This document shows, in pieces, positions 15,262-36,780 of a stretch of DNA of 40,000 bases. The notes beneath the pieces were generated by a model that saw nothing but the letters and a program-made list of their open reading frames with translations, was not told the DNA's origin and ran no database searches. Position 1 is the first letter of the stretch. Each line of letters opens with the position of its first letter. Position numbers and translations under genes: made by a program. Where the stretch lies: assembly GCA_963751295.1 (NCBI GenBank), contig CAVVUA010000004.1, positions 231,000-270,999 of the forward strand, written 5' to 3'. This stretch comes from an uncultured Acidobacteriota bacterium. Lineage in GTDB: Bacteria; Acidobacteriota; Terriglobia; Acidiferrales; UBA7541.

Positions 15262-16686
15262 TTGTTTATGTTTCCCCTGTCCGGAAGCCAACCCAGACTA
15301 AACGATCACGACGGTGCCAACCGGCGTGCGGCCGCAAATAGGTGGCAGTCCCTGCGTGTTCTGTTTGTTCACCGCGATGCTGATGAGGTCGATTCTTGTT
15401 TGCAGGAACTGAAAAGGGCGGAATTCGCAGTTCACGCGGATATCGTCTTGACCGTGGGCCAATGCGTCGAACAACTGCGCAAAGAACCGTTTGACCTGAT
15501 TGTGGCGGAATATCCAAGCCCCAACTGGAGCGGATCCGAGGCATTGGAGGCGCTTCGCCAAATGGTGCGGAGCGTACCTTTAGTGTTCGTGACAACCAGT
15601 TTGCGAAGAGAGTGCAGGGCGGCATTAGCAGCAAATGGCGCTTACGATTTTATCGAACCCGAACATATGGAGCACTTGCCAATGGCAGCTCGACGAGCGC
15701 TCGAAGAAAAGAAGCTACGTGAAGAGCTGGCGCAGGCCGAAAAAACCAGCGCAAGTGCGGAGGCGCGCTATCGCGCACTCGTTGAAAATCCTACTTACGG
15801 AATCTGCCGCGTGGACGCGAAGGGAAAATTCGGTTATGCCAATGCAGCGTTTCTAAGCATGCTGGGGTATACGTCCAGAGAGGAATTCCTGAAAACAGAT
15901 TTTGCGAGGGACGTGATTCGAGATGGTGAGGTGCGCGAGCGCTGGAGTGAGTGCCTAAAGGAAGGGGCTGAGATCGAAGGGTTCGAGATGGAGTGCTTGC
16001 GGAAAGACGGCGCAACGGTAAAGGTGCGAATGAGCGGGCGCGCGGTCTACACAGGAAACAGAGCGTTCGACGGCTACGAGATAATCGTGGGAGACGTAAC
16101 GGAACAGCAGGCGCGGGAAGTGCGACTTAGAGAGCAGGCGGAGAGTGATTCGCTGACGGGATTGGCGAATCACAGGCGTCTTTTCGAGGTGCTGCACACG
16201 GAAATCAGCCGCTCAAAACGCACAGGGCGCGAATTCGCGCTGATGCTGCTCGATGTAGACCAGTTCAAGAATATCAATGACAAATACGGTCACCTGGTGG
16301 GAGACCGTGCGCTTTGCCGGCTTACGAATGTATTGCGAAGCTGCTGCCGTTCTATCGACACAGCTGCAAGACAAGGCGGAGATGAATTTGCGCTGGTGTT
16401 GCCGGAAACGGGAGCGGCTGATGCGGCGCTGGTGGGCCAGCGAATCTGCGAGCTTCTCGCCAAAGACGTGGAAGAGCCAGTACTTTCGGTAAGCGTGGGA
16501 GTGGCAGCCTATCCTAGGGATGCAGAATCCGTTGGACCGCTGCTGTATTCGGCGGACGCCGCGTTGTACGAGATGAAGGGCAAACGAATAAGGTTGGTGT
16601 CGGTTGGGCACACACTACAAGCGTCGATGAGAGCCGAACAACGCGAAGTTGGTAAGTCTGGGGAGCAAGCAAACCGCGAGTCGTAA
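15262..16686 (+). CDS. response-regulator receiver / PAS / GGDEF diguanylate cyclase
   Basis: REC-like N-terminus (VLFVHRDADE...DLIVAEYPSPNWSG), a PAS region, and a GGDEF domain with the intact motif RQGGDEFALVL. The start could be the TTG at 15262 or the ATG at 15268. Confidence 0.9.
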   Translation: MFMFPLSGSQPRLNDHDGANRRAAANRWQSLRVLFVHRDADEVDSCLQELKRAEFAVHADIVLTVGQCVEQLRKEPFDLIVAEYPSPNWSGSEALEALRQMVRSVPLVFVTTSLRRECRAALAANGAYDFIEPEHMEHLPMAARRALEEKKLREELAQAEKTSASAEARYRALVENPTYGICRVDAKGKFGYANAAFLSMLGYTSREEFLKTDFARDVIRDGEVRERWSECLKEGAEIEGFEMECLRKDGATVKVRMSGRAVYTGNRAFDGYEIIVGDVTEQQAREVRLREQAESDSLTGLANHRRLFEVLHTEISRSKRTGREFALMLLDVDQFKNINDKYGHLVGDRALCRLTNVLRSCCRSIDTAARQGGDEFALVLPETGAADAALVGQRICELLAKDVEEPVLSVSVGVAAYPRDAESVGPLLYSADAALYEMKGKRIRLVSVGHTLQASMRAEQREVGKSGEQANRES

Positions 16687-21466: not shown

Positions 21467-21495
21467 AGTATTGCCGCCTTTTCTTCGCCTGTCAA
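21467..21495 (-). promoter_or_regulatory. candidate sigma70-like promoter of ruvA (TTGACA-17 nt-AATACT), with the -10 ending 8 nt before the ATG
   Basis: The minus strand reads TTGACAggcgaagaaaaggcggcAATACTggccttccATG. Five of the six -35 bases lie inside the left copy of the 14-bp target duplication. Confidence 0.3.
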
Positions 21496-21504
21496 CGCGG
21501 TTGG
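21491..21504. repeat. left copy of the 14-bp target-site duplication GTCAACGCGGTTGG
   Basis: Identical 14-mer at 36767-36780. Each copy directly abuts the outer end of a terminal inverted repeat. Confidence 0.85.
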
Positions 21505-21587
21505 GGGTTAAGTTACAGGCGGGGGAAAAGTGATACACCCCTGAAACGCAGTCTTTCTCAATTGAGCGCCGTTGAAATGGAAGTGCG
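21505..21587 (+). repeat. left terminal inverted repeat (36-bp perfect core 21505-21540, second conserved block 21564-21587)
   Basis: GGGTTAAGTTACAGGCGGGGGAAAAGTGATACACCC is identical to the reverse complement of 36731-36766. AGCGCCGTTGAAATGGAA(G/A)TGCG is also shared. The ORF track shows the same peptide, LSYRRGKSDTP, at both ends. Confidence 0.92.
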
Positions 21588-21842: not shown

Positions 21843-23108
21843 ATGCCGTGGTATGCATACGGCTATTTCGTCAGGCTGCCCGATCGCCGTATCGTTCATG
21901 CCGGCCATGATTTTGGTCCAACGCTCGATCTTTACACGGTAGGCAGCAGCCTCGGCGTGAAAGGCGATACGGAGGGATTCGTAATTGGCATACTGAAGGG
22001 GGAGCCGGCAAAATTGAGCGGTGGCTACGACGTTTTTGTGCTTGTGGAGCAGAGACGCGTCCGCGAGAAAGGATCTTCACCACCGCCAGCTTGGGACTTC
22101 TTCCAAAGAGATGAGGGGCGCGAATTTGTCGAGACGTTGATGGTTGGCCCTGCAAGGCTTGTTAGCAGGCCTCAAATTCAGGCGACTTTCCAGGGCCAGA
22201 AATTCCGGGCCGTAGGTAAGAATCTCTATCGGCGACCTCTGAATGAGAGTTTCTATGATTTCGAGGTAAATCATCTTCTGTGGCTACTCGGCGAGGACTG
22301 GTACAACGCCGAGATGGGGAAACATCCTGACGAGCGGCATGTCATTTTGAAATGGCGTGCAGAGCGCAACGAGCAGCTACGGAGATATCAAGATCCCAAG
22401 GACCCAGCCGGGCTAGTGCGCGCACCTGTCACTGGCGGCATGAGGGCTCTTCAAGTTTTAGCTGACGACCTCTACCAATTGGCTCACGCGCTTGAACCGC
22501 CCAGGAAGATTCTCGCCCGGCTCCGCGACATCAAGCATTTCCAGGGAGCAAGGTACGAGATCTTGACCGCTAGTCTGTTTGCTCGTTGTGGTTTTGAAGT
22601 TGAGTTTATAGAGGACAGCTCGCAAAGGAATCCTGAATTTATCGCTCAGAAAGACGGCGAAAGGATAGCGGTAGAGGCCAAGAGTAGGCATCGTGCCGGC
22701 GTCCTTAATGAGAGGGGCGACTTTCGGAAAGACGCAGCCGCAGAGATTCGTCGGTTGTACGAGGACGCAGCAGGTCAAAATCCTGGAGCATTTCCGTTTT
22801 TGATTTTCATCGATGTGAACCTGCCGTTGACGCCAGAGGTCCCCCCGCTAGAAAAGCAGTGGATCATTGAGGCGATGCAGGTGTTCGAGCACCGCGAACA
22901 AGAAGGCCTCCAAAATAGGGACACGGTTCTGATTCTCACCAATTTTGGCTGGCATTTTTCACGAGAGGAAGGCGCGCCGCCTGGGGAAAACTTTTGGGCA
23001 CGAGTCGAGCACCCCCAATATCCTGTCCGGATGAGTACTCTGGATCTTTTGGCTCGCGCACTGGGTGAATACGGAAAAGTAGTTGATGAGGAAGAACGAC
23101 GCGGTTAG
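21843..23108 (+). CDS. hypothetical protein with a C-terminal PD-(D/E)xK nuclease-like motif (casposon cargo)
   Basis: 421-aa ORF. GARYEILTASLFARCGFEVEFIEDSSQRNPEFIAQKDGERIAVEAKSR fits an E...PE...ExK restriction-endonuclease-like core. Confidence 0.55.
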   Translation: MPWYAYGYFVRLPDRRIVHAGHDFGPTLDLYTVGSSLGVKGDTEGFVIGILKGEPAKLSGGYDVFVLVEQRRVREKGSSPPPAWDFFQRDEGREFVETLMVGPARLVSRPQIQATFQGQKFRAVGKNLYRRPLNESFYDFEVNHLLWLLGEDWYNAEMGKHPDERHVILKWRAERNEQLRRYQDPKDPAGLVRAPVTGGMRALQVLADDLYQLAHALEPPRKILARLRDIKHFQGARYEILTASLFARCGFEVEFIEDSSQRNPEFIAQKDGERIAVEAKSRHRAGVLNERGDFRKDAAAEIRRLYEDAAGQNPGAFPFLIFIDVNLPLTPEVPPLEKQWIIEAMQVFEHREQEGLQNRDTVLILTNFGWHFSREEGAPPGENFWARVEHPQYPVRMSTLDLLARALGEYGKVVDEEERRG

Positions 23109-23241
23109 CGATTAGTTAACTGCAAGAATTGAATTCGGATTGAACGCCGGTCCCCGCAACCGTCGCTCGGCCAGCCATCTCGAACGAGCAGCAGGGTTTG
23201 TTTTTCAATTGCACTTGCTTTGCACAGATCGCTCCGTCTGA

Positions 23242-24021
23242 TCAGTATCCCTTGGGAGCAATTATGACTTTCACCGCGAATCCATCTTCAATTCTGCTGA
23301 GGTCGTCCTCGATACCGCGCGGATTTGTTACCCGTCCCTCAGGATCGTAGACGAAACAGATGAGTCGTTTGCAGCCTTGGTGGGCCCGATATCGGGCGAT
23401 ATCCTCGATGAGTTGGCTGCCGATCTCTTTTGCGGCTAATCCTACGCGAGTTTTCTTGGTCTCAATCACATTATCCGGTGGCAAAAAAAAATCCATACGT
23501 GACGATTTACCTGCGTAGCTGGGTGTCCACTCCTCAGTCCTTATGTCTTCGAAAAAGACCCGGAGCATCGCGTGCATGAGATCTTGAACGTCATACTCGT
23601 CAGCGACATCGATGCTCGGCCGGTTATCATGTCGGTCTCTAATTTGCATCGCTACTGTGTGAAATCGCATACACAAGAGTTCGATGGCATCGGTATGCTG
23701 AGGGAGAACGGGAACCGCAGGGGTGATGATGAGTTCGTCAGAAACATCCTTTGCGCCGGGCTCCCCCCGATACCAATCCAAGTGTCCCTGGAAAGCGAAA
23801 AGACCAGTGTAACCGCTGGCAAATTCGGTTCGCCCTTCCTCCGTCTGAACGATTTGGACGCGCTCTATCTGGTCGGGCATTATCGTGCGCCCACCCAGAA
23901 TGATCGGTTGCCAACTCTTATAGGGAACGAGTACTTGCCGCTCTAGTTGCTCACGCGTGATGCTGAGCCTCACTTCGAGAGGTGGAATCTTGGTCGTATG
24001 AATCACAACGTGGAAATTCAT
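23242..24021 (-). CDS. PD-(D/E)xK nuclease-like protein (casposon cargo, downstream of cas1 on the same strand)
   Basis: 259-aa ORF. DEYDVQDLMHAMLRVFFEDIRTEEWTPSYAGKSSRMDFFLPPDNVIETKK gives a D/E...D...ExK arrangement. Confidence 0.6.
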   Translation of the reverse strand: MNFHVVIHTTKIPPLEVRLSITREQLERQVLVPYKSWQPIILGGRTIMPDQIERVQIVQTEEGRTEFASGYTGLFAFQGHLDWYRGEPGAKDVSDELIITPAVPVLPQHTDAIELLCMRFHTVAMQIRDRHDNRPSIDVADEYDVQDLMHAMLRVFFEDIRTEEWTPSYAGKSSRMDFFLPPDNVIETKKTRVGLAAKEIGSQLIEDIARYRAHQGCKRLICFVYDPEGRVTNPRGIEDDLSRIEDGFAVKVIIAPKGY

Positions 24022-24178: not shown

Positions 24179-25396
24179 TTACGCAGAAACGCAGTTACCG
24201 CAGACCGGACTGGTGGAAAGTCGAATCTGGCCACACACTCGACAAAGCATAGGCCTCGCACGTTTAGTATCGCCCACACCTCCGTTGAGTTTTTCTCTGC
24301 CCTCGCTTTTGTGAGCCTGCGTCAACCGAGTCGCCGGAACTTGAGTCCGCACCTGTCGCATTTTCGAATCCCAAATGCATCGGGCAATCCACTCGGCAAA
24401 GGCGCTAACGGCGGTGCGCCACATTGTCGCTGTTTCCGACAGGATTTCAGCAAACGATCCCATAAGCCGACAATTGCCGTCGCGCTGTTCGAAGAACCAC
24501 TCACGCCTTAATTGTTCTTTAAGCAGTAGATCGAGAACTAGACAGTCAACCTTCGGTCGGATGGGTTCCATGAGGTCGCAAGCAAGACTGTCGCGACTGC
24601 GCAAATCGTTGTGCAGAACTCCAATACCTGGATCTAGCCCGAGTGTGGCAAGTGCCAATCGAGACTCGGACTCCAACACCGCATATAAGTAGTTCAAAAT
24701 TGCGTTGGCTGGATTGACAGCCAGTCGCGGCGAGTTGGTAAGAGGCGATATGCGGCTCCCAAATCGCCGCCAGTGTTCTGGAATTTTCGACGAATCTGAC
24801 TTGCTGAAATTCACAGGAAGCTCTCGCATTGCACTCCAATAGGCTTTAGCGCCTTTGGCTTCCCATCGCCTGATTTCCTCTTTTGATTTTGCAGTGCCGA
24901 CTAGCTTCCGTGCAGCTGCGATGTCAGATGAGCAGGGCGACTCCCTGAAGTAAGTGTTTATGATTCTTTCTTGCGCCAAGAGTTTTTCTGAAATCAATTC
25001 TCGGGCAATCTTTAGAGCAATGCCGGACTCTTGCGCAAGACTTTGGGATCGTCGGAGCCGCGCATCAGATGGGTTCACCGGGCCGGTTGTCGCCAAGACT
25101 TTTCCGTCTCGCTCAAGCAAAACGAAACTTGCGTCTTGGTCTGCGAGCCATCTAAGGGCCGCAAGCGAAACCGATCCGTCCGATCCAATAGCCACGACTC
25201 GCTTAATGCCATGCCTCACTCGGGCAAACCGACCGTAGCGACGCCTTGGCCCAATTCTGTCCTCCAAAATGAGATGGCCGCGGTCAACACACAGACGGGT
25301 GCCATAGCCGTAGAGAGTTACGACGCCACGGTGCGGCGTAATTGGAGTGAAATTGCACTGCGGTCGATCTTGCGGTACGGTCAGCGTAGCTGCCAT
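24179..25396 (-). CDS. cas1: Cas1-family integrase (casposase-like), with a C-terminal CxxC...CxxC zinc-ribbon tail
   Basis: N-terminal beta domain (LILEDRIG..., KRVVAIGSDGSVSLAALRWLADQDASFVLLERDGKV). Catalytic helical domain with WEAKGAKAYW (E), NPANAILNYLYAVLESE and GVLHNDLRSRDSLACDLMEPIRPKVD (H, D/E). The tail is CRVCGQIRLSTSPVCGNC. Confidence 0.9.
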   Translation of the reverse strand: MAATLTVPQDRPQCNFTPITPHRGVVTLYGYGTRLCVDRGHLILEDRIGPRRRYGRFARVRHGIKRVVAIGSDGSVSLAALRWLADQDASFVLLERDGKVLATTGPVNPSDARLRRSQSLAQESGIALKIARELISEKLLAQERIINTYFRESPCSSDIAAARKLVGTAKSKEEIRRWEAKGAKAYWSAMRELPVNFSKSDSSKIPEHWRRFGSRISPLTNSPRLAVNPANAILNYLYAVLESESRLALATLGLDPGIGVLHNDLRSRDSLACDLMEPIRPKVDCLVLDLLLKEQLRREWFFEQRDGNCRLMGSFAEILSETATMWRTAVSAFAEWIARCIWDSKMRQVRTQVPATRLTQAHKSEGREKLNGGVGDTKRARPMLCRVCGQIRLSTSPVCGNCVSA

Positions 25397-26598: not shown

Positions 26599-26888
26599 GA
26601 TCGCGCGACGGGTCACAGCCTATCTGCGTGATTTGTGGCAAGGACGCTACGTTGGAATTCAACCATGCCGCGGGTAAGAAACATATACCGTGGTTCAAAA
26701 TTCCCTTTTGCGAGCAGCATCATCATCAGTTTCATCGCCTACTAGAAAGTGTGGGCCTTAACCTTCGCTACACACCCAATAAGTTGAAACGCTTGGTAAT
26801 TGCGGCACTTGCCCTGACTATAGCTCTATGGATGGTGCTTCAAGCCCTCGGGGAAACCGTCTCGCATCTTCCCGAAAAGGACACTTAG
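26595..26888 (+). CDS. small HNH-like nuclease-motif protein with a C-terminal TM helix
   Basis: CVICGKDATLEFNHAAGKKH...PFCEQHHHQFH resembles a CxxC...HNH...CxxH beta-beta-alpha-Me finger. Translationally coupled to the upstream gene. Confidence 0.5.
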   Translation: MRSRDGSQPICVICGKDATLEFNHAAGKKHIPWFKIPFCEQHHHQFHRLLESVGLNLRYTPNKLKRLVIAALALTIALWMVLQALGETVSHLPEKDT

Positions 26889-26902
26889 CCACCAAAAGAG
26901 AT

Positions 26903-29141
26903 ATGTCTGAGCAGGAATCTCCCGAAATCTTCGTGCGGGCGCATACAATCGTCCGCACGAAGAAGAACGCGAGGGATCGCAGATGGTCGCCAAAATGGCC
27001 CAAGTACTGCCTCATCTTCGATACCGAAACCACTCTTGATCCCACTCAGAAACTTAATTTTGGTGCCTACCGCCGATGCCAACGCGTGGGTGATAAATAT
27101 ATATGTGTGGCCGAAGGAATTTTCTATAAGGATGATCTTCCTGAACGCAAATTAAAACTCGTACAGCGATACAAGAGCAACCCTAAGACTCTTCCATCGA
27201 TTGAAGTGTTTCCCGCGCAAATGGCGCTCGGTCTGATGAGTCGCTCTGCATTTGTCAGTCGAATCTTTTGGAAATCCGTGCGGAAAGGGGAGCTGATTGT
27301 TGGTTTTAATTTGCCGTTCGACCTATCGCGATTGGCGATCAAAGCGACTGCCGGAAAAAAGGGTGACTGGTCCTTAGCACTCTCCCAGCTTTGGGAGAAT
27401 CCCAAGACAGGGCGAATCGTACCAAACCCGAAGCGACCCCGAATTATTGTTGACGCTCAAAACAGCAAGATGGCTTTTATCAAACTAGGCAGCATTTTGC
27501 ACAAGAAGGAGTGGCCAAAAGAAGGTCGCTTCCTTGATCTGCGAACTCTCGGCTGGGCGTTAAGGAATGTGTCCTTTAGCTTGAAAGTTGCCTGTAAGAA
27601 GTTCCACGTCAAAGGGAAACCAGATCACAAGCCCTCAGGAGAGATCAATTCCGAAGAGATGGAGTACTGTCGAGGTGATGTGGCGGCCACGCACCGCTTG
27701 CTAAATGCGATGATGGCGGAATTTAATCGGAATCCTCTTGATTTGCATCCCGACAAAGCCTACTCACCTGCTTCGATTGCCAAAGACTATTTGACGGAAA
27801 TGGGAATCAAGCAGCCCAAGGATCATTTCGAAGTCCCTAACAAGACTTTGGGAATTGCAATGCAAAGTTATTATGGCGGTCGGGCAGAGTGCCGGATCAG
27901 AAAAACTCCCGTTCCAGTGATCCACACTGACTTCACCAGCCAATATCCAACTGTCAACGCACTCTTGGGAAACTGGAATGTGCTTACTTCCAGCTCTGTC
28001 CGGTTTGTAAATTGCAAAGCATCTGCCAAAAAGCTGCTTTCGAAAGTATCTCTGAAAAACATGTTTGATCCGGGTTTCTGGAAACAGCTCTCGTTCTTTG
28101 CGCTTGTAAAGCCCAAGAACGACATTCTTCCAGTGAGAACGATTTACAAAGGAAGAACGCAGAATATCGGACTTAATTATCTGACTTCTGACAAACCCAT
28201 TTGGTATGCGGGCCCCGATCTCATAGCTTCCAAAATCCTCACCAAGAGAGCTCCCAAAATCCTAAAAGCGCTCCGCATGGTGCCACACGGTCGACAATTA
28301 AATTTGCAATCTCGAAATCTACAGGGAATGGTGGAAATAAATCCTGCAAAGGATGATTTCTATCGGAAGGTAATCGAACAGAGAATCTCCCATAAAGCAC
28401 AAAACAAGCCTTTGGCTGACTTTCTCAAAGTACTGGCAAACTCGGGAAGTTATGGCTTGTTCGTGGAGGTAAATACCGAAACGAAGAAAAAAGAAACGAA
28501 AGTGCCTTATTTTTCCGGCGAGAAAAAAGGAAGAATCCCCTCTACCTACGTAGAAAAGCCAGGCGCTTGGTATTTTCCTCCGGTGGCATCTCTCATTACA
28601 TCTGGTGGCAGGTTATTACTCGCGATGCTGGAAAAGAGTGTCGATGAAAGTAGGGGAAGCTACTTGTTCTGCGATACTGATTCGCTTTGCATCGTGGGGA
28701 CGGAAACGGGGAGTTTTGTTCCTTGCGTAGGGGGGAAGCATTTTTCCAAAGGAAAACCAGGCTTCAGAGCACTGTCACTGCGGGAAGTAAGATCAATCGC
28801 AAGTAAATTCAGAAAACTAAACCCGTACAATCCTTCCCTCGTAACTGAAATCCTCAAGATCGAAGACATCAACTTCTTGGATGACGATCCCAAGAAACGA
28901 TTCCGCCAGCTTTTTGGCTACGCGATTTCCGCGAAAAGATATGCGCTTTACACAAGATCGGGAAGTGACATTCAAATTGAAAAAGCCAGCGGGCACGGTC
29001 TCGGATATCTCTGTGCGCCAAAGGAAAGAGAAGATGATGAGAAAACTGATGAGGAAACAGATGAGGATGAAGCGCCGCAGTGGGTAACGGAAGCTTGGGA
29101 CTTTCTTTTGAGGAAAGAACTGGGATTGCACTCCAAGGAAC
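26903..29141 (+). pseudogene. family-B DNA polymerase, N-terminal ~746 codons (exonuclease and polymerase core), truncated by an IS3 insertion
   Basis: ExoI CLIFDTETT, ExoII GFNLPFDLSRL, ExoIII YCRGDVAATH, SYYGGR, motif A HTDFTSQYPTV, motif B KVLANSGSYGLF, motif C LFCDTDSLCI, KxY AISAKRYALY. The track ORF 26828..29272 continues into IS sequence. Confidence 0.9.
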
Positions 29142-29201
29142 TGTCTTGCCTCAGCTGGAACCGGAGAAGGCGTTCTTCCGTTAAGATAACGGAGAGGGCG
29201 C

Positions 29202-29510
29202 ATGAGAAAAGGGCGAAAGCACTACACCGGAGAAGAGAAGGTTGCCATCCTGAGACGGCACTTGTTGGATAAGGTGCCGGTTTCTGATCTCTGTGAGGAG
29301 CATGGACTGCAGCCGACCGTGTTCTACCGCTGGCAGAAAGAGTTCTTCGAGAATGGCGCGGCCGCCTTCCAGGGCAAGGGCCGGCAGGACCACCAAGGTG
29401 AACAACAACGGATCGAGTTCCTGGAAAAGAAGATCCACACCAAAGACGAGGTGCTGGCTGAATTGATGGCCGAGCACATCGCCTTAAAAAAAAGTCTTGG
29501 GGAGCTCTGA
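29202..29510 (+). CDS. IS3-family transposase OrfA (HTH)
   Basis: MRKGRKHYTGEEKVAILRRHLLDKVPVSDLCEEHGLQPTVFYRWQKEF is typical of IS3 OrfA. Confidence 0.9.
   Translation: MRKGRKHYTGEEKVAILRRHLLDKVPVSDLCEEHGLQPTVFYRWQKEFFENGAAAFQGKGRQDHQGEQQRIEFLEKKIHTKDEVLAELMAEHIALKKSLGEL
29486..29494 (+). other. programmed -1 ribosomal frameshift site (A AAA AAA AG) joining OrfA to OrfB
   Basis: A run of eight A followed by G. A shift from the orfA frame to -1 reads ...KKSWGALTKVWVPPDV, which merges with the OrfB N-terminus. Confidence 0.75.
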
Positions 29511-29515
29511 CCAAA

Positions 29516-30547
29516 GTGTGGGTGCCGCCCGATGTGCGGGACCAGGTGGTGGATTTCGTCCGGTGCTGGTCGGAAAAAACAGAGATCGGTACCGGACGAT
29601 TCATCCACTGGCTGGGCGTACGACCCAGCAAGTTCTACGACTGGCGGGAGCGCTATGGGCACGTCAATGAGCACAACGGTTGGGTTCCTCGCGATTTCTG
29701 GCTACAACCGTGGGAGAAGCAAGCCATCATCGGCTTCCACCGGGAACATCCCTTGGAAGGCTATCGACGACTGACGTTCATGATGCTGGACGCCGATGTT
29801 GTGGCCGTCAGCCCCTCCAGCGTTTGGCGAGTGCTCCAACAAGCCGGATTGCTCTCCCGATGGAAGGGTAAGCCTTCGCGCAAGGGGAGCGGTTTCGAGC
29901 AACCACCGCACGCGCACCAGCATTGGCACATCGATGTTTCCTACATCAACGTGAGCGGCACGTTCTATTACCTGTGCAGCATTCTGGATGGCTATAGCCG
30001 TTCGATCGTTCATTGGGATCTGCGGGAATCGATGACCGAAGCGGAGATCGAAGTCATTTTGCAACGAGCGCGGGAGAAATATCCGGAAGCGAAACCGCGG
30101 ATCATCTCCGACAACGGACCACAGTTTATTGCCAGGGATTTCAAGGAATTCATTCGCATCGCGGGGATGACCCACGTGCGAACCTCGCCCGGCTATCCGC
30201 AATCGAACGGGAAACTTGAACGCTGGCACAAATCGCTAAAAGCGGAGTGCATCAGGCCAGGTACACCGTTGACGAGAGAAGACGCGGTGCGTTTGATTCA
30301 AGCCTACGTGGATCACTACAACACCGTGCGCCTGCACAGCGCTATCGGCTATGTGACGCCGCACGATATGCTCGCCGGGAGACAGGCTGAGATCCACGCG
30401 GCACGCGATCGCAAGCTGGAGGAAGCGCGTCACCAACGGCAGTTCCGGCGGGAGGCCAGATCGCTGCTTGCACATTCTTCGAACACGACTACAATGACCT
30501 CGCCAGGTGAAACAGAAGCGGGCTCTGCAGGGATGCAACCATGCTGA
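29516..30547 (+). CDS. IS3-family transposase OrfB (DDE/rve integrase core)
   Basis: HWHIDVSYI (D), IISDNGPQFIA (D) and PQSNGKLERWHKSLK (E). Frame is -1 relative to orfA. Confidence 0.9.
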   Translation: MWVPPDVRDQVVDFVRCWSEKTEIGTGRFIHWLGVRPSKFYDWRERYGHVNEHNGWVPRDFWLQPWEKQAIIGFHREHPLEGYRRLTFMMLDADVVAVSPSSVWRVLQQAGLLSRWKGKPSRKGSGFEQPPHAHQHWHIDVSYINVSGTFYYLCSILDGYSRSIVHWDLRESMTEAEIEVILQRAREKYPEAKPRIISDNGPQFIARDFKEFIRIAGMTHVRTSPGYPQSNGKLERWHKSLKAECIRPGTPLTREDAVRLIQAYVDHYNTVRLHSAIGYVTPHDMLAGRQAEIHAARDRKLEEARHQRQFRREARSLLAHSSNTTTMTSPGETEAGSAGMQPC

Positions 30548-30735
30548 GGGATAACCTGGTAGGACTCATCGAGCCGATGCGAATCAGCGCGGGAGTTGAT
30601 CCTCTCGCGCTGAGCATCCAGAAACAGGCATCGGACGATAGATCCTCATGCCTTGAAAATCCCCGTCCCGAATGGGCGGAATCTTCACTAACGGAAAACG
30701 TCACCTCTCCATTTCAGGCTGAGCCAGCACAGAAC

Positions 30736-31427
30736 CATCATGGTTGGACTTGCCCGCAATGATGCGAATGGTGGTAACAACCCCCAACGTATTGAAGCAT
30801 CAAAGGCCAGAGTGGCTGGGACCGTTCAATTTCTTCTTGTTTCCTTTGCTCTCTGAAGTTGGCGGATATCCTTCGGGTTTCGACAAATCCAATTTTATGT
30901 TCATAACCCCCAACGAATCGAAGCGAAGCAAGTGGAAATCGCTCGGCGGGATCAATTTATATGACGGGCGAAGCTATCAGATCGCGATGCGCCCCACGGC
31001 AAAGCAGGACAAGGTAATTCCAGAATCTTTTCGAATCATCCTGAACCAATACTTGGGCAAGGCTGAGGTGAAATCGCTAGCCCCGGACGGAACGCCATGC
31101 ACCGGAACTACTCAAGGGTTGCTCCTTAGAGCAAGAATTGTTGCGGGCAAATTGATTCCCGTCGGTAAAGAGACGGATCGAAAGTGGGAGCACGGTGGAG
31201 ATCCGAGTATGCTGGATTCCCAGGTCCATGTATATGAGAAGCAGCGAAAAATGGTTATCGCTAACGCTTTGGAGAGGAACACATGGTTGGCCATCGGCGT
31301 TAGGCGCTTGATGAGAGAAACAAAGCTAAGCCAAGCACCAGTCTCCAACGCTATCAGGGGCAAGCCGGTCCGTCCTGGCACTCTGGCGATCATCAGAGAG
31401 ACGGCAGCCAGGATACTGGCCGAGTAA
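30736..31427 (+). pseudogene. family-B DNA polymerase, C-terminal ~230 codons separated from the N-terminal part by the IS3 element
   Basis: Deleting 29142-30735 joins ...GAA C|CA TCA TGG TTG GAC... This gives ...HSKEPSWLDLPAMMRMVV..., in frame with track ORF 30744..31427. The reconstituted ORF is ~976 codons from the ATG at 26903. Confidence 0.85.
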
Positions 31428-31433
31428 TGGTAC

Positions 31434-31580
31434 GGGACTTGTCCGGTAAGGCGACTTCTGCTTATCCGGTTGTTTCAGCAAAACCGGATATCTTGGGCGT
31501 CGTCGACGCCAGCACCACAACGGCTGGGTGGCGACCTGAAGCAACCGGATAAGCAAGAGGCGACTAATCGGGAGTTATGG
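31434..31580 (+). repeat. palindromic cargo motif, copy A (GGGACTTGTCCGGTAAGGCGACT...AATCGGGAGTTATGG), interrupted in its loop by a 101-bp insert
   Basis: Starts 7 nt after the PolB stop. With 31457-31557 removed, it aligns at about 33 of 40 positions with copy B. Confidence 0.7.
31457..31557. mobile_element. MITE-like 101-bp insert with 16-bp terminal inverted repeats and an 8-bp duplication AGGCGACT
   Basis: TCTGCTTATCCGGTTG ... CAACCGGATAAGCAAG match at 14 of 16 positions as inverted repeats. AGGCGACT sits at 31449-31456 and 31558-31565. The internal palindrome is GGCGTCGTCGACGCC. Confidence 0.35.
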
Positions 31581-31863
31581 CCTCCCATGATTGCCGAGGA
31601 CCCATTGGTCACACCCCACCACAACAATTGAGCAGCATTTTTCAATTGCTTTGTAAACTCCGCATGTGGTGTCCAGAAAAGAGCGGACTATGGTGCGACA
31701 AACCCTCAGTCGGGTCAGTATTGTTTTCAGTCTGTTGTCTGCGTTTTCGCTAGCGAGGATGGTTGCATCGCGGTAACCAATTCCGAGATCGAGGAAATCT
31801 GGCCCATGGTGGCGGTTGGTACCGCTGTGGAAATTCGTCCGTAGGTAGCTCGAACTGACCAAC

Positions 31864-31900
31864 GGAACTTGTCCGATAACGCGACAACCAGGAGTTAGGT
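31864..31900 (+). repeat. palindromic cargo motif, copy B (GGAACTTGTCCGATAACGCGACAACCAGGAGTTAGGT)
   Basis: Aligned by eye to copy A. Unoccupied. Confidence 0.65.
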
Positions 31901-31952
31901 ATGTGCCACGATTAAGATCATCTATCCTGTTGATCGATTAGAATGAAAGTCT

Positions 31953-32243
31953 ATGGCAACTCGCGTCATAGTCGGAGTCGTCGCGCTGGCCTGTTTTTCG
32001 ATCTGTGGCATGCTCTCGACCTTTACAAGGTACGAGATGATGGACAAAGTAAATGAAAAACTTCCAAAAGAGGAACAGTTTGGGGCGCTCTGGTGGTATG
32101 CATCCAAGTACCAACGACTCAATCGTGAATACAAAAAGCTGTATCCAGACGGGGACCTTCTCTTAAAGATTCGCGTGCTTATTGCGCTGATGTTTGCTTG
32201 TTTGCTCGTTTGCGTTTTGGGATTCGGAATCTTCGCAAAGTGA
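31953..32243 (+). CDS. small two-TM membrane protein (cargo)
   Basis: 96 aa. The hydrophobic helices are VIVGVVALACFSICGMLSTF and VLIALMFACLLVCVLGFGIF. No clear RBS. Confidence 0.45.
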   Translation: MATRVIVGVVALACFSICGMLSTFTRYEMMDKVNEKLPKEEQFGALWWYASKYQRLNREYKKLYPDGDLLLKIRVLIALMFACLLVCVLGFGIFAK

Positions 32244-32259
32244 GCGTGAAATCCATTTG

Positions 32260-33101
32260 GTCGAGTAGCCGGGCGCCATCGCTGGCGCCCAGCCCTCTAA
32301 GAACCGGACTTGAAGGTTTCCCATTCATCCGGCTCGAGCACTCAAAAACGCCCCCCTGAACAACGAGGACGCGGCCTGATTCAAAAACGAAGCAGACCTA
32401 CTCGATACTGACTTGCTGCCGATTCGCACGACGGTGGAAAATCCACCAATCGTGTGTGAAGCCGCACCAACGGGTTGCCCCGTCGTCATTTGCTTTGCTT
32501 CATGCATCGGTTCCTCAAGAGTTCTCGAGCTGAGCACCAACAGGAAGTCAGCTCCGTTTCCGGCGAGGTGATCTTGTCCCAACCTGGCGACGCAACCTCT
32601 ATCTGCCCGATTACAGGGCAGCCTTCGCTTGCTCCCATTTCCGTTACCCGCATCGCCATCAGTGCCATCTTGCGATGGACTTTCCCCTTGCGAGGAGCGC
32701 TACGGGCTTACCCTGTTCCGCTGAAATGACGCGATCGGTTAGATCTGCTCCCTACGCCGGCAGTGTTGATTACCCATGACAGAGGAACCGGAAGCCTCTG
32801 TACTCACTGCAAGAAGAGCCACGCAGCATTTTAGGCTCTCTTCGTCTGACGACGCTTACGAGCATTTGTATATTCTGATCGTACGATCAAGCCTAGGCCC
32901 GTCTCCGCCTAATGCTGGCAGGTACACCGTGGCCTCACGGTTTCGGTGCCGCTCTTGCGAGCGTGGATACATTTTTCCAAGGGCTCCAGAACAGTTCGTT
33001 ACCTCCCCGCTCTGCCTTGTAGGCTACGTGCGATGGGACGCACGGTCTGATCGAGTTCCTCCTCTCCAGACAATCATCTTCAGCAGCTTTACAGGTCGCA
33101 C
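32260..33101 (-). mobile_element. ORF-less group II intron (842 nt)
   Basis: On the minus strand the 5' end is GUGCGAC. Domain V is at 32301-32335. The D6-like helix has a bulged A 7 nt from a ...CUACUCGAC 3' end. The D5-to-3'-end segment (41 nt) aligns with that of the neighbouring intron and shares AGCGAUGG. No credible ORF inside. Confidence 0.62.
32301..32335 (-). ncRNA. group II intron domain V of the ORF-less intron
   Basis: GAGCCGGAU-GAAUGG-GAAA-CCUUC-AA-GUCCGGUUC. It has the AGC triad, a GNRA tetraloop, a 2-nt bulge and a 9-bp basal helix. Confidence 0.65.
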
Positions 33102-33130
33102 TCCGGTAAGACGACTAATCAGGACTTGAC
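33102..33130 (+). repeat. palindromic cargo motif, copy C (TCCGGTAAGACGACTAATCAGGACTTGAC), abutted by the 5' end of the ORF-less intron
   Basis: It lies 15-20 nt downstream of the stop of the 252-aa minus-strand gene. On the minus strand it reads ...CCTGATTAGTCGTCTTACCGGA|GUGCGAC. Confidence 0.65.
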
Positions 33131-33145
33131 CGCGAGGACAACAAG

Positions 33146-33904
33146 TCACAAGTCGGGCAGGGCTGTTATGAAGCCCTTTGGGCGCTCGCTAACAGGATTT
33201 GGGGCATCAACGCTGACATGAGGATTCCATTCGTAAGTTATTTCTGCCCAGCCCCCGCTGGTGGTCAAGTGGTACGGCAAATGGTCTGATGTGCCAACGC
33301 AAACAGTGTCGTGCATCACTCGCCCGGTCTCCTCAATTGTCCAAGTATAACTCCACTCAAGACAGGGATGTCCCGCGTAGGTTTTTAGCCCTTCTGGATG
33401 CATGTTTACGCCATGATAGTTGGACCAGAAACTCGTCTCTATGGAATCGAAGCTGTACCCAATCGTACGCGGATTGCTCATGTGCAAGCGCAGCTCAAAA
33501 AAACCGTCCAACGGCGGCATATCTCTCGGAATCAATTTTATCCATAGTGATGAGCTTTTGTGACCGAACATTGCATCGCCACGAAAATATCGGTCATCTC
33601 GGACCCGGATGTATTCAAGATCACCCGCGATGCGAATGCTCTTTGAGTCCCCTGCTTCTGCTGTGCGGTCAACATGCTGCCATCCATGCTCGCGGTCGGG
33701 CGGGACTGCTTCGATCGTCATCCACTCTTTCGGGAGTTTTGGATCTGTCGATTGCAAATGCATACGCCAGCTTTTCGTTCTGGAAATCGCCCAATCCGTG
33801 CGAAGTAGCCAGTAATCCGCTCGTTTGTCTGACCAGTTTTTTGCAGCCCAAATTGAACCCGCCGCAATCAGCGCGGCAATCCCATACAATAGAATCTTTT
33901 TCAT
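33146..33904 (-). CDS. secreted hypothetical protein (cargo)
   Basis: 252-aa ORF with the signal peptide MKKILLYGIAALIAAGSIWAA. No family recognised. Confidence 0.6.
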   Translation of the reverse strand: MKKILLYGIAALIAAGSIWAAKNWSDKRADYWLLRTDWAISRTKSWRMHLQSTDPKLPKEWMTIEAVPPDREHGWQHVDRTAEAGDSKSIRIAGDLEYIRVRDDRYFRGDAMFGHKSSSLWIKLIPRDMPPLDGFFELRLHMSNPRTIGYSFDSIETSFWSNYHGVNMHPEGLKTYAGHPCLEWSYTWTIEETGRVMHDTVCVGTSDHLPYHLTTSGGWAEITYEWNPHVSVDAPNPVSERPKGFITALPDL

Positions 33905-34039
33905 GAGCCTGAGAGAAGATTAGAGCACTTCCTGTCTAGATTCCAATCACGCTTGGAGCCGCTCAGCTATCTAGTAATGACCCGTGTACGGGCCTAAGTG
34001 TCGCGGTAGGGACGACCATCGCTGATCGCCCCCCGCACA

Positions 34040-34071
34040 GAACCGTACGGGCGCTTCTACGCATACGGCTC
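34040..34071 (-). ncRNA. group II intron domain V (32 nt)
   Basis: GAGCCGUAU-GCGU-AGAA-GCGC-CC-GUACGGUUC. The AGC triad and 2-nt bulge are present. Confidence 0.85.
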
Positions 34072-35634
34072 CCACCTTGGATGAGTGGCGAGGAAACGAG
34101 CTATAGGATAAGGATGCAAAACGCGTGGGGCGGGAATCCACCGCTTGAAGATCCGGGTGGTCCGGATCCACGACGTTGGTCGTTGACTGCGACGGCGTAG
34201 AAGGAGCCGCCACAATCGCCGCAAGCGTTGTCCGAAGATACTCAACCGGACGATGTTTCCCGGGACCGCATGGTAGCGGTAGTAGCCGTTCACAACCTTT
34301 CGTAGCCATGCACCGACGTCGGCAATCGGCTCGTGCATGCGGAGGCGCAGTTCTGCTTTGAGTGCGTGCAGCTTCGCCACCATGCGTTTCTTCGCCGTTT
34401 TCCGCCAGACGATGAACGACCCGTTGCTCCGGCGCTTCCCGCAGTGATGCGTAAAGCCCAGGAACGTGAAGGTCTCCGGCTTCCCTACTCCACGCTTCTC
34501 CCGATCTTGGGCAGCGAACCGCCCAAACTCGATCAGTCGTGTTTTCTCCGGATGTAGTTCCAATCCGAATTTAGCCAATCGTTCCCGAAATGCTTCCAGG
34601 AATCGCTCGGCCTCCACTCGGTTTTCGAAACCCACCACCAGATCATCGGCGTAGCGGACGACGATCACATCACCCGTGGCCACTTTCTGGCGCCAAGCCT
34701 CGATCCACAGGTCGAATACGTAATGCAGGTACACATTGGCTAGCAATGGAGAAACCACTGCTCCTTGCGGTGTTCCTACCTTACTCTCCGACCATTGGCC
34801 GTCTTCCGATATCCCCGCCTTCAACCATTTCTGGATCAGGCGCAGGATCCGGCGATCGGCTACGCGGTGCTCAACAAACTTCATCGTCCATTCGTGACTC
34901 ATATTGTCAAAGAAGCCTCGAATGTCGGCGTCAAGCACCCAGTTCACGCGCTTCCTTTGGAGGCCCACCGTCAGCGCGTCCAGCGCTTGGTGCGGGCTGC
35001 GTCCGGGACGGAACCCATACGAGAATCCTTGGAAGTCCACCTCATAAATCTGGTTGAGAATGGTCACCACGGCTTGCTGTACGATTTTGTCTTCCAGCGC
35101 CGCAATACCCAACGGGCGTTTCCGCCCGTCAGCCTTCGGTATGTAGACTCTTCGTGAGGGCTGTGCCCGATACGCTCCTCGGTGTACCCGGTTGTGTAGA
35201 TCGGTAAGCCGACCTTCTAACCCGGTTTCATACTCCTGCCATGTCACGCCATCTACTCCCGGCGCGGCTTGCCGCTTTAAGGCGTAGTAGCTGTCCCGGA
35301 GTAAATCCACGCTCACATGGTGTAGCAAAGCTGTGAACCGTTCTTGCCTCCTTTTCTTTGCTGCTTCTCGCACACCGCCCAATCCCTGGGACACTCGTTC
35401 TCCGCTCTGTGTCGGGTGAGTGTTGGGTTGAACGATGTTCTCCTTGGCCCGCACCCTTTTCTCCCCAGGCTCCGCCGAAGATCGCTCCTCTTTGTTCGTC
35501 TGGTTCATCGATAGTATGGTGCGGTCCGACTCCTCTGGAGCGTGCGCGTCCGCCTTCTGGCTTTGCGCCTTCGCGGACCGGCCTCGTTCCCTTTCGGGCC
35601 GAGGCGCTCCAGAGGTCTCCCGGTTCTCGTGCAT
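34057..35634 (-). CDS. group II intron-encoded reverse transcriptase/maturase
   Basis: RT blocks (APGVDGVTW, RRVYIPKADGRKRPLGI, VLDADIRGFFDNMSH, GTPQGAVVSPLLANVYL, VVRYADDLVVGF) and a maturase/X region. No C-terminal HNH endonuclease. The first ~90 aa are low-complexity, so the start may be the internal ATG at 35508. Confidence 0.92.
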   Translation of the reverse strand: MHENRETSGAPRPERERGRSAKAQSQKADAHAPEESDRTILSMNQTNKEERSSAEPGEKRVRAKENIVQPNTHPTQSGERVSQGLGGVREAAKKRRQERFTALLHHVSVDLLRDSYYALKRQAAPGVDGVTWQEYETGLEGRLTDLHNRVHRGAYRAQPSRRVYIPKADGRKRPLGIAALEDKIVQQAVVTILNQIYEVDFQGFSYGFRPGRSPHQALDALTVGLQRKRVNWVLDADIRGFFDNMSHEWTMKFVEHRVADRRILRLIQKWLKAGISEDGQWSESKVGTPQGAVVSPLLANVYLHYVFDLWIEAWRQKVATGDVIVVRYADDLVVGFENRVEAERFLEAFRERLAKFGLELHPEKTRLIEFGRFAAQDREKRGVGKPETFTFLGFTHHCGKRRSNGSFIVWRKTAKKRMVAKLHALKAELRLRMHEPIADVGAWLRKVVNGYYRYHAVPGNIVRLSIFGQRLRRLWRLLLRRRSQRPTSWIRTTRIFKRWIPAPRVLHPYPIARFLATHPRWEPYA

Positions 35635-35916
35635 GTTGTTTCTCAGCGTGCGCGGGTTCTTAGACTACGCAGGACCGACTGCTCGCTCGCGTTTATCGCG
35701 AAAACAGCCGTATTGCCTTCCTCCAATCAGGAGAGAGTCGGCGTCCTGGTTTGCGTTTTTCGAAGTTCAATAGCCCGGCCCACCGATACCCCTGTCTACG
35801 CTTCGGGCGACACCTCGCGATGTCACCTGCAAGACTGAGGGCCAAGATGGAGTCGCTGTCTCCTTTCTTGTGGGACTCTTTCATTCCCTACAACACGCCG
35901 GTTTAACCCGGCGCAC

Positions 35917-35945
35917 CCCGATTAACGCTAGCGCCGTTACCGTCC
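35917..35945 (-). repeat. palindromic cargo motif, copy E (minus-strand GGACGGTAACGGCGCTAGCGTTAATCGGG), split from its ACTTAGG continuation (33993-33999) by the 1.9-kb intron
   Basis: The 5' exon ends ...GTTAATCGGG|GUGCG. The rejoined exons give TAATCGGG|ACTTAGG, compared with copy A TAATCGGG AGTTATGG. Confidence 0.6.
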
Positions 35946-35966
35946 AAATGAAGTTTTACTTTACAT

Positions 35967-35990
35967 CTCCGGTAAGCCAACTAATCGAGC
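35967..35990 (+). repeat. palindromic cargo motif, copy D (CTCCGGTAAGCCAACTAATCGAGC)
   Basis: Aligned by eye. It forms an inverted pair with copy E, 21 bp away. Confidence 0.5.
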
Positions 35991-36126
35991 ACTGGCAAGT
36001 GATGTTTTGAGGTCACACCGTGGAAGCGTTGTCCGGACACGGCTAGAATGAGAATCAGGGACACCGTGACTCGCATCGCTCGCTTGTCTGCGCAATCGGG
36101 GACAAGGGACGCACGCGTTGATTCTA

Positions 36127-36393
36127 ATGAAACACTCTCGAACGAAGATGTTCATATTGGCAGTGTTCTTTATCGCGGCTACTGCCATCGGTTGCTGGGC
36201 GGAATTTCGCCCGCTGACAAGCGACGTCCTAGGCATGTTCGCGCTGCCCGGAGTCTTCCTCTCCTTGTGCTTTAGCATCGGCCCCCATGGATCAACAAGG
36301 TTGTTCCTCTGGTCGGGGCCAATCTGTAACGGCGTCGCCTATACGGGGCCTCTTGCTTTCGTGTTCTGGTTGCGCGCTAAACTTTCACACTAA
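36127..36393 (+). CDS. small membrane protein (cargo)
   Basis: MKHSRTKMFILAVFFIAATAIGCW... with 2-3 hydrophobic helices. The TTG at 36118 is an alternative start. Confidence 0.4.
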   Translation: MKHSRTKMFILAVFFIAATAIGCWAEFRPLTSDVLGMFALPGVFLSLCFSIGPHGSTRLFLWSGPICNGVAYTGPLAFVFWLRAKLSH

Positions 36394-36682
36394 CTGCGGG
36401 GACCGCTTTGCAGCGCGGCGTGGTTGGCAGTAACGATCCAAAGTCCTGGGAAACGCCGTTACCGGAAAAGTGGAAATGCAAACTGGATTCGTACTTTTCA
36501 GTTTTTACGAAGATCATTCCTCGTCGCAATGTACTTTCCAAGTGTGTTTGTGACGCACGCGAATCGTATTTGCAAGTGGCCTAGTTTCAGTGGTTTCTGC
36601 CAGCGGAACGCGTCAAAAGCGTTCGCACGCCGCTTCTCATAAGCACACCCGTGAAAATCACGGTGCGCGCTGGTAAAACAAT

Positions 36683-36766
36683 CGCATTTCCATTTCAACG
36701 GCGCTGCATTGCGCGAGCACGCGTTTCCACGGGTGTATCACTTTTCCCCCGCCTGTAACTTAACCC
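36683..36766 (-). repeat. right terminal inverted repeat (perfect core 36731-36766)
   Basis: Its reverse complement matches 21505-21587: 36/36 in the core, then two further conserved blocks separated by a divergent ~14-nt spacer. Confidence 0.92.
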
Positions 36767-36780
36767 GTCAACGCGGTTGG
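36767..36780. repeat. right copy of the 14-bp target-site duplication GTCAACGCGGTTGG
   Basis: Matches 21491-21504 at 14 of 14 positions in direct orientation. It immediately follows the TIR end. Confidence 0.85.

Follow-up and report, generated by a model that had tools for sequence, protein, structure and literature searches.

Palindromic sites dividing the cargo of an acidobacterial casposon belong to a family linked to a Xer-like tyrosine recombinase and are candidate recombination sites

What divides the cargo of a casposon into short, gene-sized units? The question is raised by a 40,000-nt stretch of DNA from an uncultured Acidobacteriota bacterium (assembly GCA_963751295.1, contig CAVVUA010000004.1, positions 231,000–270,999), referred to here as the window, with coordinates counted from its first letter. 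A casposon that encodes Cas1, a helix-turn-helix (HTH) protein and a family-B DNA polymerase (PolB) spans about 21.5–36.8 kb of the window. An earlier note, made from the sequence alone, had pointed to five copies (A to E) of an imperfect palindrome that partition the cargo half of this element into cassette-like units, and had offered element-specific terminators, recombination or cassette-boundary sites, and preferred intron targets as explanations. We find that these copies belong to a site family that forms polar arrays on chromosomes of the host lineage and is physically linked, in other loci, to the gene for a Xer-like tyrosine recombinase. We consider it probable, with moderate confidence, that the sites are core-type recombination sites of this recombinase and that the casposon cargo is an integrase-less cassette array.

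All five copies were recovered, each where it had been read by eye or within a few bases of that place, and they do divide the cargo half into units as proposed. Two kinds of site occur, H2 and its inverted partner H1, whose consensus sequences are given below. Following the polymerase gene (polB), the cargo half reads as follows.

31437–31456, + strand: site A, left flank, left arm and centre (ACTTG TCCGGTAAG GCGACT), starting 10 nt past the polB stop
31457–31559: miniature inverted-repeat transposable element (MITE) in the centre of site A, 103 bp, with terminal inverted repeats (TIRs) CTTATCCGGTTGTTTCAGCA and a 6-bp duplication, GCGACT
31560–31580, + strand: site A, duplicated centre, right arm and flank (GCGACT AATCGGG AGTTATGG); profile match
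31581–31866: cassette 1, a short unit between A and B, whose sole open reading frame (ORF; 95 aa, − strand) is unsupported
31867–31899, + strand: site B, a degenerate solo H2, one base shorter (ACTTG TCCGATAAC GCGAC AACCAGG AGTTAGG); hidden Markov model (HMM) E = 2.8e-4
31900–32259, + strand: cassette 2 with a 96-aa ORF (31953–32243), terminating in CATTTG, the left flank of site C
32260–33101, − strand: intron 1, an ORF-less group II intron of 842 nt, at the 5′ edge of site C, after the 3′ arm CTTACCGGA on the − strand
33102–33131, + strand: site C, solo H2 (TCCGGTAAG ACGAC TAATCAGG ACTTGACC); pattern and profile matches
33132–33999, − strand: cassette 3 with a 252-aa gene (33146–33904); homology limits at the outer edges of sites E and C
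34000–35916, − strand: intron 2, a group II intron of 1917 nt with a reverse transcriptase (RT) gene (34057–35634), after TTAATCGGG, the 3′ arm of site E on the − strand
35917–35950, − strand: site E, H1-type (CCCGATTAAC GCTAGCGCC GTTACCGTCC AAATG on the + strand), with a centre 6 nt longer than usual
35951–35961: linker aagttttactt between E and D, of a linker family also found in loci L023, L024 and L015
35962–35995, + strand: site D, the H2 of the E–D composite (TACATC TCCGGTAAG CCAAC TAATCGAG CACTGG); pattern and profile matches
35996–36682, + strand: cassette 4 with a 91-aa ORF (36118–36393), running to the right TIR

The left flank of site C (CATTTG, 32254–32259) thus lies beyond intron 1. 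Copy E had been counted as a fifth equal copy; its sequence is there, and it is instead the inverted H1 partner of D. The two, spaced 20 nt, make up one composite of ∼80 bp, which is the usual form of the site elsewhere, and their linker is identical to that of L023. Sites A, B and C are solo H2 sites.

The likeness among the copies exceeds chance. The core pattern of the earlier note, with up to three mismatches, matches C and D, with 0 matches expected in shuffled sequence. Similarly, an iterated HMM trained solely on sites from other genomes picks up the left part of A, the right part of A, B, C and D, all on the + strand, and at E<0.01 nothing else in the 40 kb; the 35 kb outside the cargo hold no copy, in agreement with what had been noticed by eye. 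The by-eye consensus also agrees with a profile of 126 H2 sites, none of them from the window. A sixth look-alike, at 29255, lies inside orfA of an IS3-family insertion sequence (IS) element and was set aside as a chance match. An independent assembly of the same casposon, the Logan contig L003, breaks off precisely at window position 31434, where site A starts, probably because the repeat interrupted the assembly.

The H2 consensus, A..TgTCCGGTAA-GSCGAC-TWAYCRGG-AsTT, covers ∼31 bp. Its arms (TCCGGTAA / TWAYCRGG) are inverted and 8 bp each; they enclose a 6-bp centre (GSCGAC) and are bordered by short flanks in direct orientation (AyTTG ... AsTT). The CGAC of the centre carries 1.7–1.9 bits in the 126-site profile, and is as conserved as the arms. 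Sequence need not be conserved in a hairpin loop, whereas in a core site of a tyrosine recombinase the crossover region must match between partner sites and is conserved for that reason. Thus, the centre appears to be more than a hairpin loop, and its conservation fits the crossover region of a core site. The inverted partner H1 (ctaaSt-CCTGATTAAC-GCG-GTTACCGGACAAGTG) has a centre, AACGCG, unlike that of H2. Most array members are composites in which H1 is followed by a linker of 7–27 nt, drawn from a few families, and then by H2 (CACTTG-TCCGGTAAG-NCGA-CTAATCRGG-ASTT). Of the suggestion that the arms of each copy pair, the inverted arms themselves are real, but the hairpins are weak: folding energies for both strands of every window copy do not differ from those of shuffled sequences (z −1.4 to +1.3). 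The composite can fold as a long hairpin with a 6x6 internal loop, in which 75% of cells are paired.

A scan for TCCGGTAAGNCRACTAATCRRG over one genome per prokaryotic species found 25 loci, with ∼2 matches expected by chance by our own estimate. All except one come from metagenome-assembled genomes (MAGs) of Acidobacteriota (24 loci, from Acidiferrum, Acidoferrum, Sulfotelmatobacter and Terriglobales); the remaining locus is from a Chthoniobacterales MAG. When we searched these 25 loci by tblastn with all casposon and cargo proteins, no homologue of Cas1, PolB, the intron RT or a cargo protein was found. The presence of the motif in loci without Cas1 or PolB means that the site family is not casposon-specific, contrary to the first impression of an element-specific motif, and soil-metagenome loci that encode the recombinase described below point the same way.

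In these 25 loci the sites form arrays. There are 70 sites with a median spacing of 896 bp, and neighbouring sites lie on the same strand in 43 pairs and on opposite strands in 2. Site orientation does not follow gene orientation. A representative genome has about one strict match, around which 3–6 copies cluster. The earlier note had asked whether the motif might be a common genome-wide repetitive extragenic palindromic (REP) sequence unrelated to the element; it is indeed shared with chromosomes of the host lineage, but in the loci scanned it occurs in clustered, polar arrays and does not look dispersed.

The arrays are linked to a recombinase gene. Locus L004 encodes a tyrosine recombinase of 315 aa, with an inverted H2 on one side of the gene and a direct H2 on the other. 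The protein scores 106–110 bits on XerC and XerD models, below their cut-offs, and 38.9 bits on the integron-integrase model TIGR02249 (cut-off 265), which only its C-terminal 80 residues match. A metagenome scan found at least 574 relatives of this recombinase in soil, and the best 80 loci were taken for analysis. Sites were present in 23 of 63 upstream windows of 500 nt (24 matches, all on the − strand) and in 14 of 70 downstream windows of 150 nt (14 matches on the + strand and 1 on the −), compared to 2 of 114 control windows. Over whole loci the polarity persists: upstream of the recombinase, 31 sites are on the − strand and 7 on the +, and downstream 34 are on the + strand and 1 on the −. 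Similarly, site pairs that span the recombinase gene have the orientation (−,+) in 11 of 12 cases. Downstream arrays reach six sites in L084, and four sites follow the recombinase gene in L064. By eye, about half of the loci with enough downstream flank have an H2-like sequence soon past the stop codon, and the site variant tracks the integrase lineage, with TCCGGTAAG-NCGA-CT.. in closer relatives and GGACGGTTAG-CCGA-CT.. in more distant ones. The sequence before site A in the window, TAATGGTACGG, is the same linker as at the integrase-proximal site in L045.

Some recombinase loci share further features. In L029–L065, a conserved hairpin with a ribosome-binding site (ggctagtcgtcgggaggcggctaacc) lies ∼30 nt upstream of the integrase start, and a subset of them has an extra conserved segment of ∼350 nt between the inverted site and the recombinase gene. 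Just past the recombinase in L029, L032, L037, L040 and L044 there is a small gene beginning MEIDLHGYHPAEIVFNG, and the first H2 comes after it; a DLHG motif is the one indication that its product may be Smr-like.

The units between sites behave as cassettes. Loci L008 and L024, otherwise unrelated, share a between-site segment (88% identity over 619 bp), and the same is true of L007 and L028 (79% identity over 586 bp). The 252-aa gene of the window has 66 homologues in at least four different neighbourhoods. Among the window, L109 and L113, homology of the unit that bears this gene begins at ACTTAGG, the exact boundary of intron 2 and site E, and ends at GGTCAAGT, the edge of site C. Thus, the same unit is found in different neighbourhoods, and its limits are at the sites. 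The neighbours of other 252-aa homologues (in L110–L112 and a JGI contig of 386 kb) include HigB/HTH, PIN, DinB_2, DoxX_2, AHSA1, DUF1801 and CMD genes, small genes of types often found in integron cassettes; L110–L112 yielded no H2 sites.

A comparison with other copies of the element, which had been proposed as a check, shows that cargo changes behind a site that is kept. Casposases 73–89% identical to the window Cas1 were traced to contigs. In L118, an intact H2 follows the polB stop directly, with the junction as in the window (…gagtaatggtacgg-ACTTGTCCGGTAA…), and this equivalent of site A is uninterrupted, lacking the MITE. Beyond it, L118 has more sites and wholly different small ORFs; a search for the TIRs of this element found none, and some of its sites may lie outside it. 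In L115 and L116 the same polB-proximal site is interrupted as GCG|AC by the insertion of an IS30-like element; an H1-like sequence occurs at this position in L117 and a degenerate one in L119/L120. The site next to polB therefore dates far back in the casposon lineage, and the cargo behind it turns over. The window and L118 are nearly identical to the left of the site centre and diverge immediately to the right of it, which is the pattern that a crossover at the centre would give.

Three of the five copies had been described as occupied by other mobile DNA, namely two introns and one MITE-like insert, and this is correct. On the − strand, Rfam reports RF02005 (158 bits) and RF02012 (88 bits), each with RF00029; the domain-I family is RF02012 for intron 1 and RF02005 for the RT-encoding intron 2. 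With ends GTGCG...GAC, both are group II introns. The exon-binding site 1 (EBS1) of each complements a site arm, the intron-binding site (IBS1): in intron 1, an EBS1-like loop UCCGGU (∼nt 310) complements ACCGGA, the last arm bases on the entered strand, and in intron 2, an EBS1-like loop CCCGA (∼nt 318) complements UCGGG. The two introns use opposite strands of one palindrome family, each exactly at the foot of an arm. These observations fit the earlier idea of preferred intron targets. They also resemble the targeting of group IIC and IIC-attC introns, in which the intron lies exactly at the 3′ foot of a palindrome with EBS1–IBS1 pairing of 5–6 nt, and one intron here is ORF-less. They differ in that the target is neither a terminator nor an attC site and in that two unrelated introns use opposite strands; matches of the intron 2 RT to IIB and IIC structures in the PDB score alike and do not discriminate between the two classes.

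Relatives of both introns adjoin integrase-proximal sites, in L096 (intron 2; RT 85% identical) and L031 (intron 1), and other RT-encoding introns are present in L038, L070 and L102. Retargeting through EBS1 was considered for the L096 relative and rejected, as its loop differs but does not match the 5′ exon in L096. Relatives of the site A MITE occur in L034, where the insertion is likewise in an H2-like centre with a target-site duplication GCCGGCT, and in L106. In a sister strain (ENA), a 2487-bp IS91-family element with its own tyrosine recombinase sits in the centre of E (L001 214–2700; window 35927–35934). The window has 6 extra nt, CTAGCG, at that position, which may be a footprint or target of the IS91-like element. 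Among 149 array ORFs, Pfam identifies three IS110-family transposases. ORFs of the size of IS110 transposases fill whole cassette slots in L009 (511–1548), L027 (891–1931) and L028 (886–1935), an assignment by size only. As conserved palindromes, the sites thus serve as landing pads for other mobile DNA: introns would pair their EBS1 loop with the last 5–6 nt of an arm and insert at the site edge, MITE, IS30-like and IS91-like elements would enter the site centre, and IS110-family elements would occupy cassette slots.

The possibility of recombination or cassette-boundary sites, named at the outset, fits this evidence. We infer that the recombinase binds and cleaves the sites, with the crossover in GSCGAC, and that cassettes entered the casposon in this way. 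H2 would then consist of an arm, a crossover region and a second arm, recognised by the linked recombinase. On Terriglobia chromosomes the arrays are polar and start on either side of the recombinase gene. The casposon array, comparable to the integrase-less attC clusters of integrons, would have been seeded at the site kept directly after the polB stop in the casposon lineage, and a host-encoded recombinase would add and remove casposon cassettes in trans.

Several results weigh against core-type recombination sites. No recombinase of this family is encoded in the 40-kb window, so that action in trans is an assumption. With the first HMM, sites at E<0.01 turn up in no more than 25 of the 80 integrase loci, the others having by-eye variants or being short contigs. 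Next to the homologues of the 252-aa gene in L109–L114, the HMM recognised no H2. Cassette ORFs occur in both orientations, and some are 880–940 aa long, unlike typical integron cassettes. Across 37 composites, H1 and H2 are 75% complementary, a level equalled by shuffled partners and by partners across a cassette. We found no covariation beyond shuffles in these composites, either for the long H1–H2 hairpin or for the local H2 hairpin, and no consistent bulges; a label offset of one row in one of these comparisons touches a few adjacency pairs only. The composite may thus act as a folded, attC-like hairpin or as two duplex sites. Finally, the integrase itself could be one more mobile element that targets the sites.

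The main rival, which we regard as unlikely, is that the sites are repeats of the kind represented by REPs, bacterial interspersed mosaic elements (BIMEs) and REP doublets forming hairpins (REPINs). H1-linker-H2 would then be a miniature non-autonomous element copied by the recombinase that it flanks, as REPINs are by REP-associated tyrosine transposases (RAYTs), and the ‘cassettes’ would be genes that happen to lie between insertions. Much of the anatomy agrees with this: short imperfect palindromes mostly come as inverted doublets whose linkers fall into a few discrete families, inverted copies enclose the recombinase gene as they do the linker of a composite, and IS110-family and other mobile elements target the sites as they do REPs. 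The missing H1–H2 covariation and the ordinary, mixed-orientation genes between sites are also expected from such repeats. However, the copies are locally clustered, with none in the 35 kb of window outside the cargo and about one strict match per genome, and their near-uniform orientation in arrays, flipping at the recombinase, is not what random insertion would yield. In addition, the homology of shared cassettes stops at site edges, which coincide with the limits of shuffled gene units, and the partner enzyme is a tyrosine recombinase and not an HUH transposase. Among the 25 commonest Pfam families of the 149 array ORFs there is no Y1 transposase.

Terminators or mRNA-stabilising hairpins, targeted by terminator-seeking introns, are a much weaker alternative, and we think it very unlikely. 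Copies do lie just past ORFs, for example C, which is 16 nt beyond the stop codon of the 252-aa gene when read on the strand of that gene, and class IIC introns are known to insert after terminator hairpins (PMC3001079). Against this, the copies fold no better than shuffles, have no T-runs and are not among the terminator-like calls in our scan; the unpaired CGAC centre is as conserved as the stems, and site orientation is constant whatever the orientation of the neighbouring gene. The terminator reading of the earlier note is therefore not one that we retain.

A cluster of integron attC sites without a nearby integrase is known as a CALIN, and the cargo could be an ordinary CALIN of canonical attC sites served by the integron integrase IntI. 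We hold this to be even less probable than terminators. The architecture is like that of integrons: imperfect-palindromic sites of one orientation (43 pairs versus 2 in the 25 loci; A to D all on the + strand in the window) separate one or a few genes, the array starts from a tyrosine recombinase gene that adjoins a simple site, clusters lacking an integrase ride on other mobile elements, and group II introns and IS110/IS1111-type elements target the sites. Introns at the foot of sites are known from IIC-attC introns (PMC3001079), and chromosomal attC sites are known in Acidobacteria (PMC8352920). The sites themselves are different. We found no RYYYAAC-N-GTT or TTAAC-N-GTTRRRY half-sites on either strand of 424 kb (the window and the 25 loci), and H2, without RYYYAAC / GTTRRRY boxes, has another arm spacing, a conserved centre and no clear extrahelical bases in its consensus. 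The Acidobacteria attC consensus is GCCUAAC-aacuC-GUUgAAGC ... cGCUUAAc-UCGagC-GUUAGGC (PMC8352920). A weight matrix of the conserved halves, made from the attC model of Ghaly et al. (PMC8352920, supplementary file 3), scores 65 bits on its own consensus, but has no positive match at window E–D or in L016, and its placement in L023 scores −14 bits, compared to 15 bits for shuffled sequence. The linked recombinase is Xer-like and not IntI, as its TIGR02249 score indicates, arrays lie on both sides of its gene, and cassette genes run both ways and can be large. A tblastn search of the window and the loci with an IntI1 query gave only a weak match (E∼1e-4) to the catalytic region of the L004 recombinase, which NCBIfam assigns as Xer-like.

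Least probable of all, to the point that we give it almost no credence, is a casposon-specific role, as sites for the Cas1 casposase or for PolB-primed replication: several related casposons do retain a site immediately past the polB stop, but the family is abundant in loci without Cas1 or PolB and its sites are unlike the casposon TIRs.

The sites may also be compared with the pdif modules of Acinetobacter plasmids. Both have an arm, a 6-bp centre and an arm, both have modules flanked by inverse sites (here H2 ... H1), and in both a Xer-type recombinase is presumed to move the modules. Here, however, the recombinase is a dedicated one in place of the housekeeping XerC/D, the arrays are long and polar, and adjacent units are joined by H1-linker-H2 composites with no single shared site. 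The H2 layout (8-6-8) is similar to that of dif (11-6-11 bp), and on informal comparison its sequence bears no likeness to the dif consensus. Acidobacterial dif sites are reported to be canonical (PMC3025954).

Our tentative proposal, which we put forward as a possibility, is that Terriglobia have an undescribed integron-like system, made up of a Xer-like recombinase, ∼31-bp sites (TCCGGTAA-GSCGAC-TWAYCRGG) with inverted partners, and polar arrays on both sides of the recombinase gene, and that the casposon lineage acquired one site after polB, which became a docking point for host cassettes. In the searchable literature we found no description of the site family or of the association of recombinase and arrays in Acidobacteria. 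In permafrost soil, 97% of contigs with ‘integron-type’ recombinases were reported to lack a known attC, and novel sites were proposed (bioRxiv 10.1101/2025.02.12.637893). The Terriglobia system could be part of the answer for such contigs in acidobacteria-rich soils, if the recombinase belongs to that group.

Should the linked recombinase indeed recombine the sites, integron-style capture of cassettes would extend beyond IntI and attC. Soil would then harbour a second, abundant cassette system, judging from the relatives found in one metagenome scan, and genes would be reshuffled by it in a phylum that is among the dominant ones in soil. The casposon would gain cargo modularly, at a defined site after polB, and the window would hold layered mobile DNA, in which a casposon carries a cassette array that in turn receives group II introns, a MITE and, in the wider family, IS30-, IS91- and IS110-type elements. 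If the sites are REP-like instead, the finding would be more ordinary, yet it would still describe a new repeat family with an unusual partner in a tyrosine recombinase. The site profile provides a means to find such arrays.

The identification of the element as a casposon, made in the earlier note, is upheld by Cas1 and PolB between TIRs and a 14-bp direct repeat, GTCAACGCGGTTGG, at each end. The TIR regions cover ∼90 bp, with inverted repeats of 51 and 45 nt that are 80–88% complementary. Outside the cargo, the features of the element are these.

21496–21587: left TIR; a copy of the direct repeat (21491–21504) overlaps its tip
24179–25396, − strand: Cas1 casposase gene (PF01867, E = 1e-41)
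26828–31427, + strand: family-B DNA polymerase gene, polB (PF03175), split by an IS3-family element
36683–36775: right TIR; second copy of the direct repeat at 36767–36780

The IS3-family element (∼29142–30731; orfA 29202–29510, orfB 29516–30547) that splits polB is missing from a near-identical casposon copy (ENA ERZ25039522 contig_29054), in which PolB is intact (976 aa). The insertion in the window is therefore recent, and it probably disables the casposon polymerase. The left arm of the casposon encodes an Mrr-like protein (21843–23108, + strand) and a DpnII/MboI-type restriction endonuclease (23242–24021, − strand), and no motif copies were found on that side, in the region 21843–24021.

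The casposon is flanked by chromosomal genes (ruvA, ruvB and HPPK), and the window RuvB is 91–92% identical to proteins of Candidatus Acidiferrum/Acidoferrum, which places the host among the Terriglobia within the Acidobacteriota. In the window, the casposon adjoins ruvA. The relative in L119/L120, with a Cas1 only 73% identical, is also bordered by ruvA fragments, in regions at about 12000–12285 and 16090–16233, which suggests a conserved casposon integration target near ruvA.

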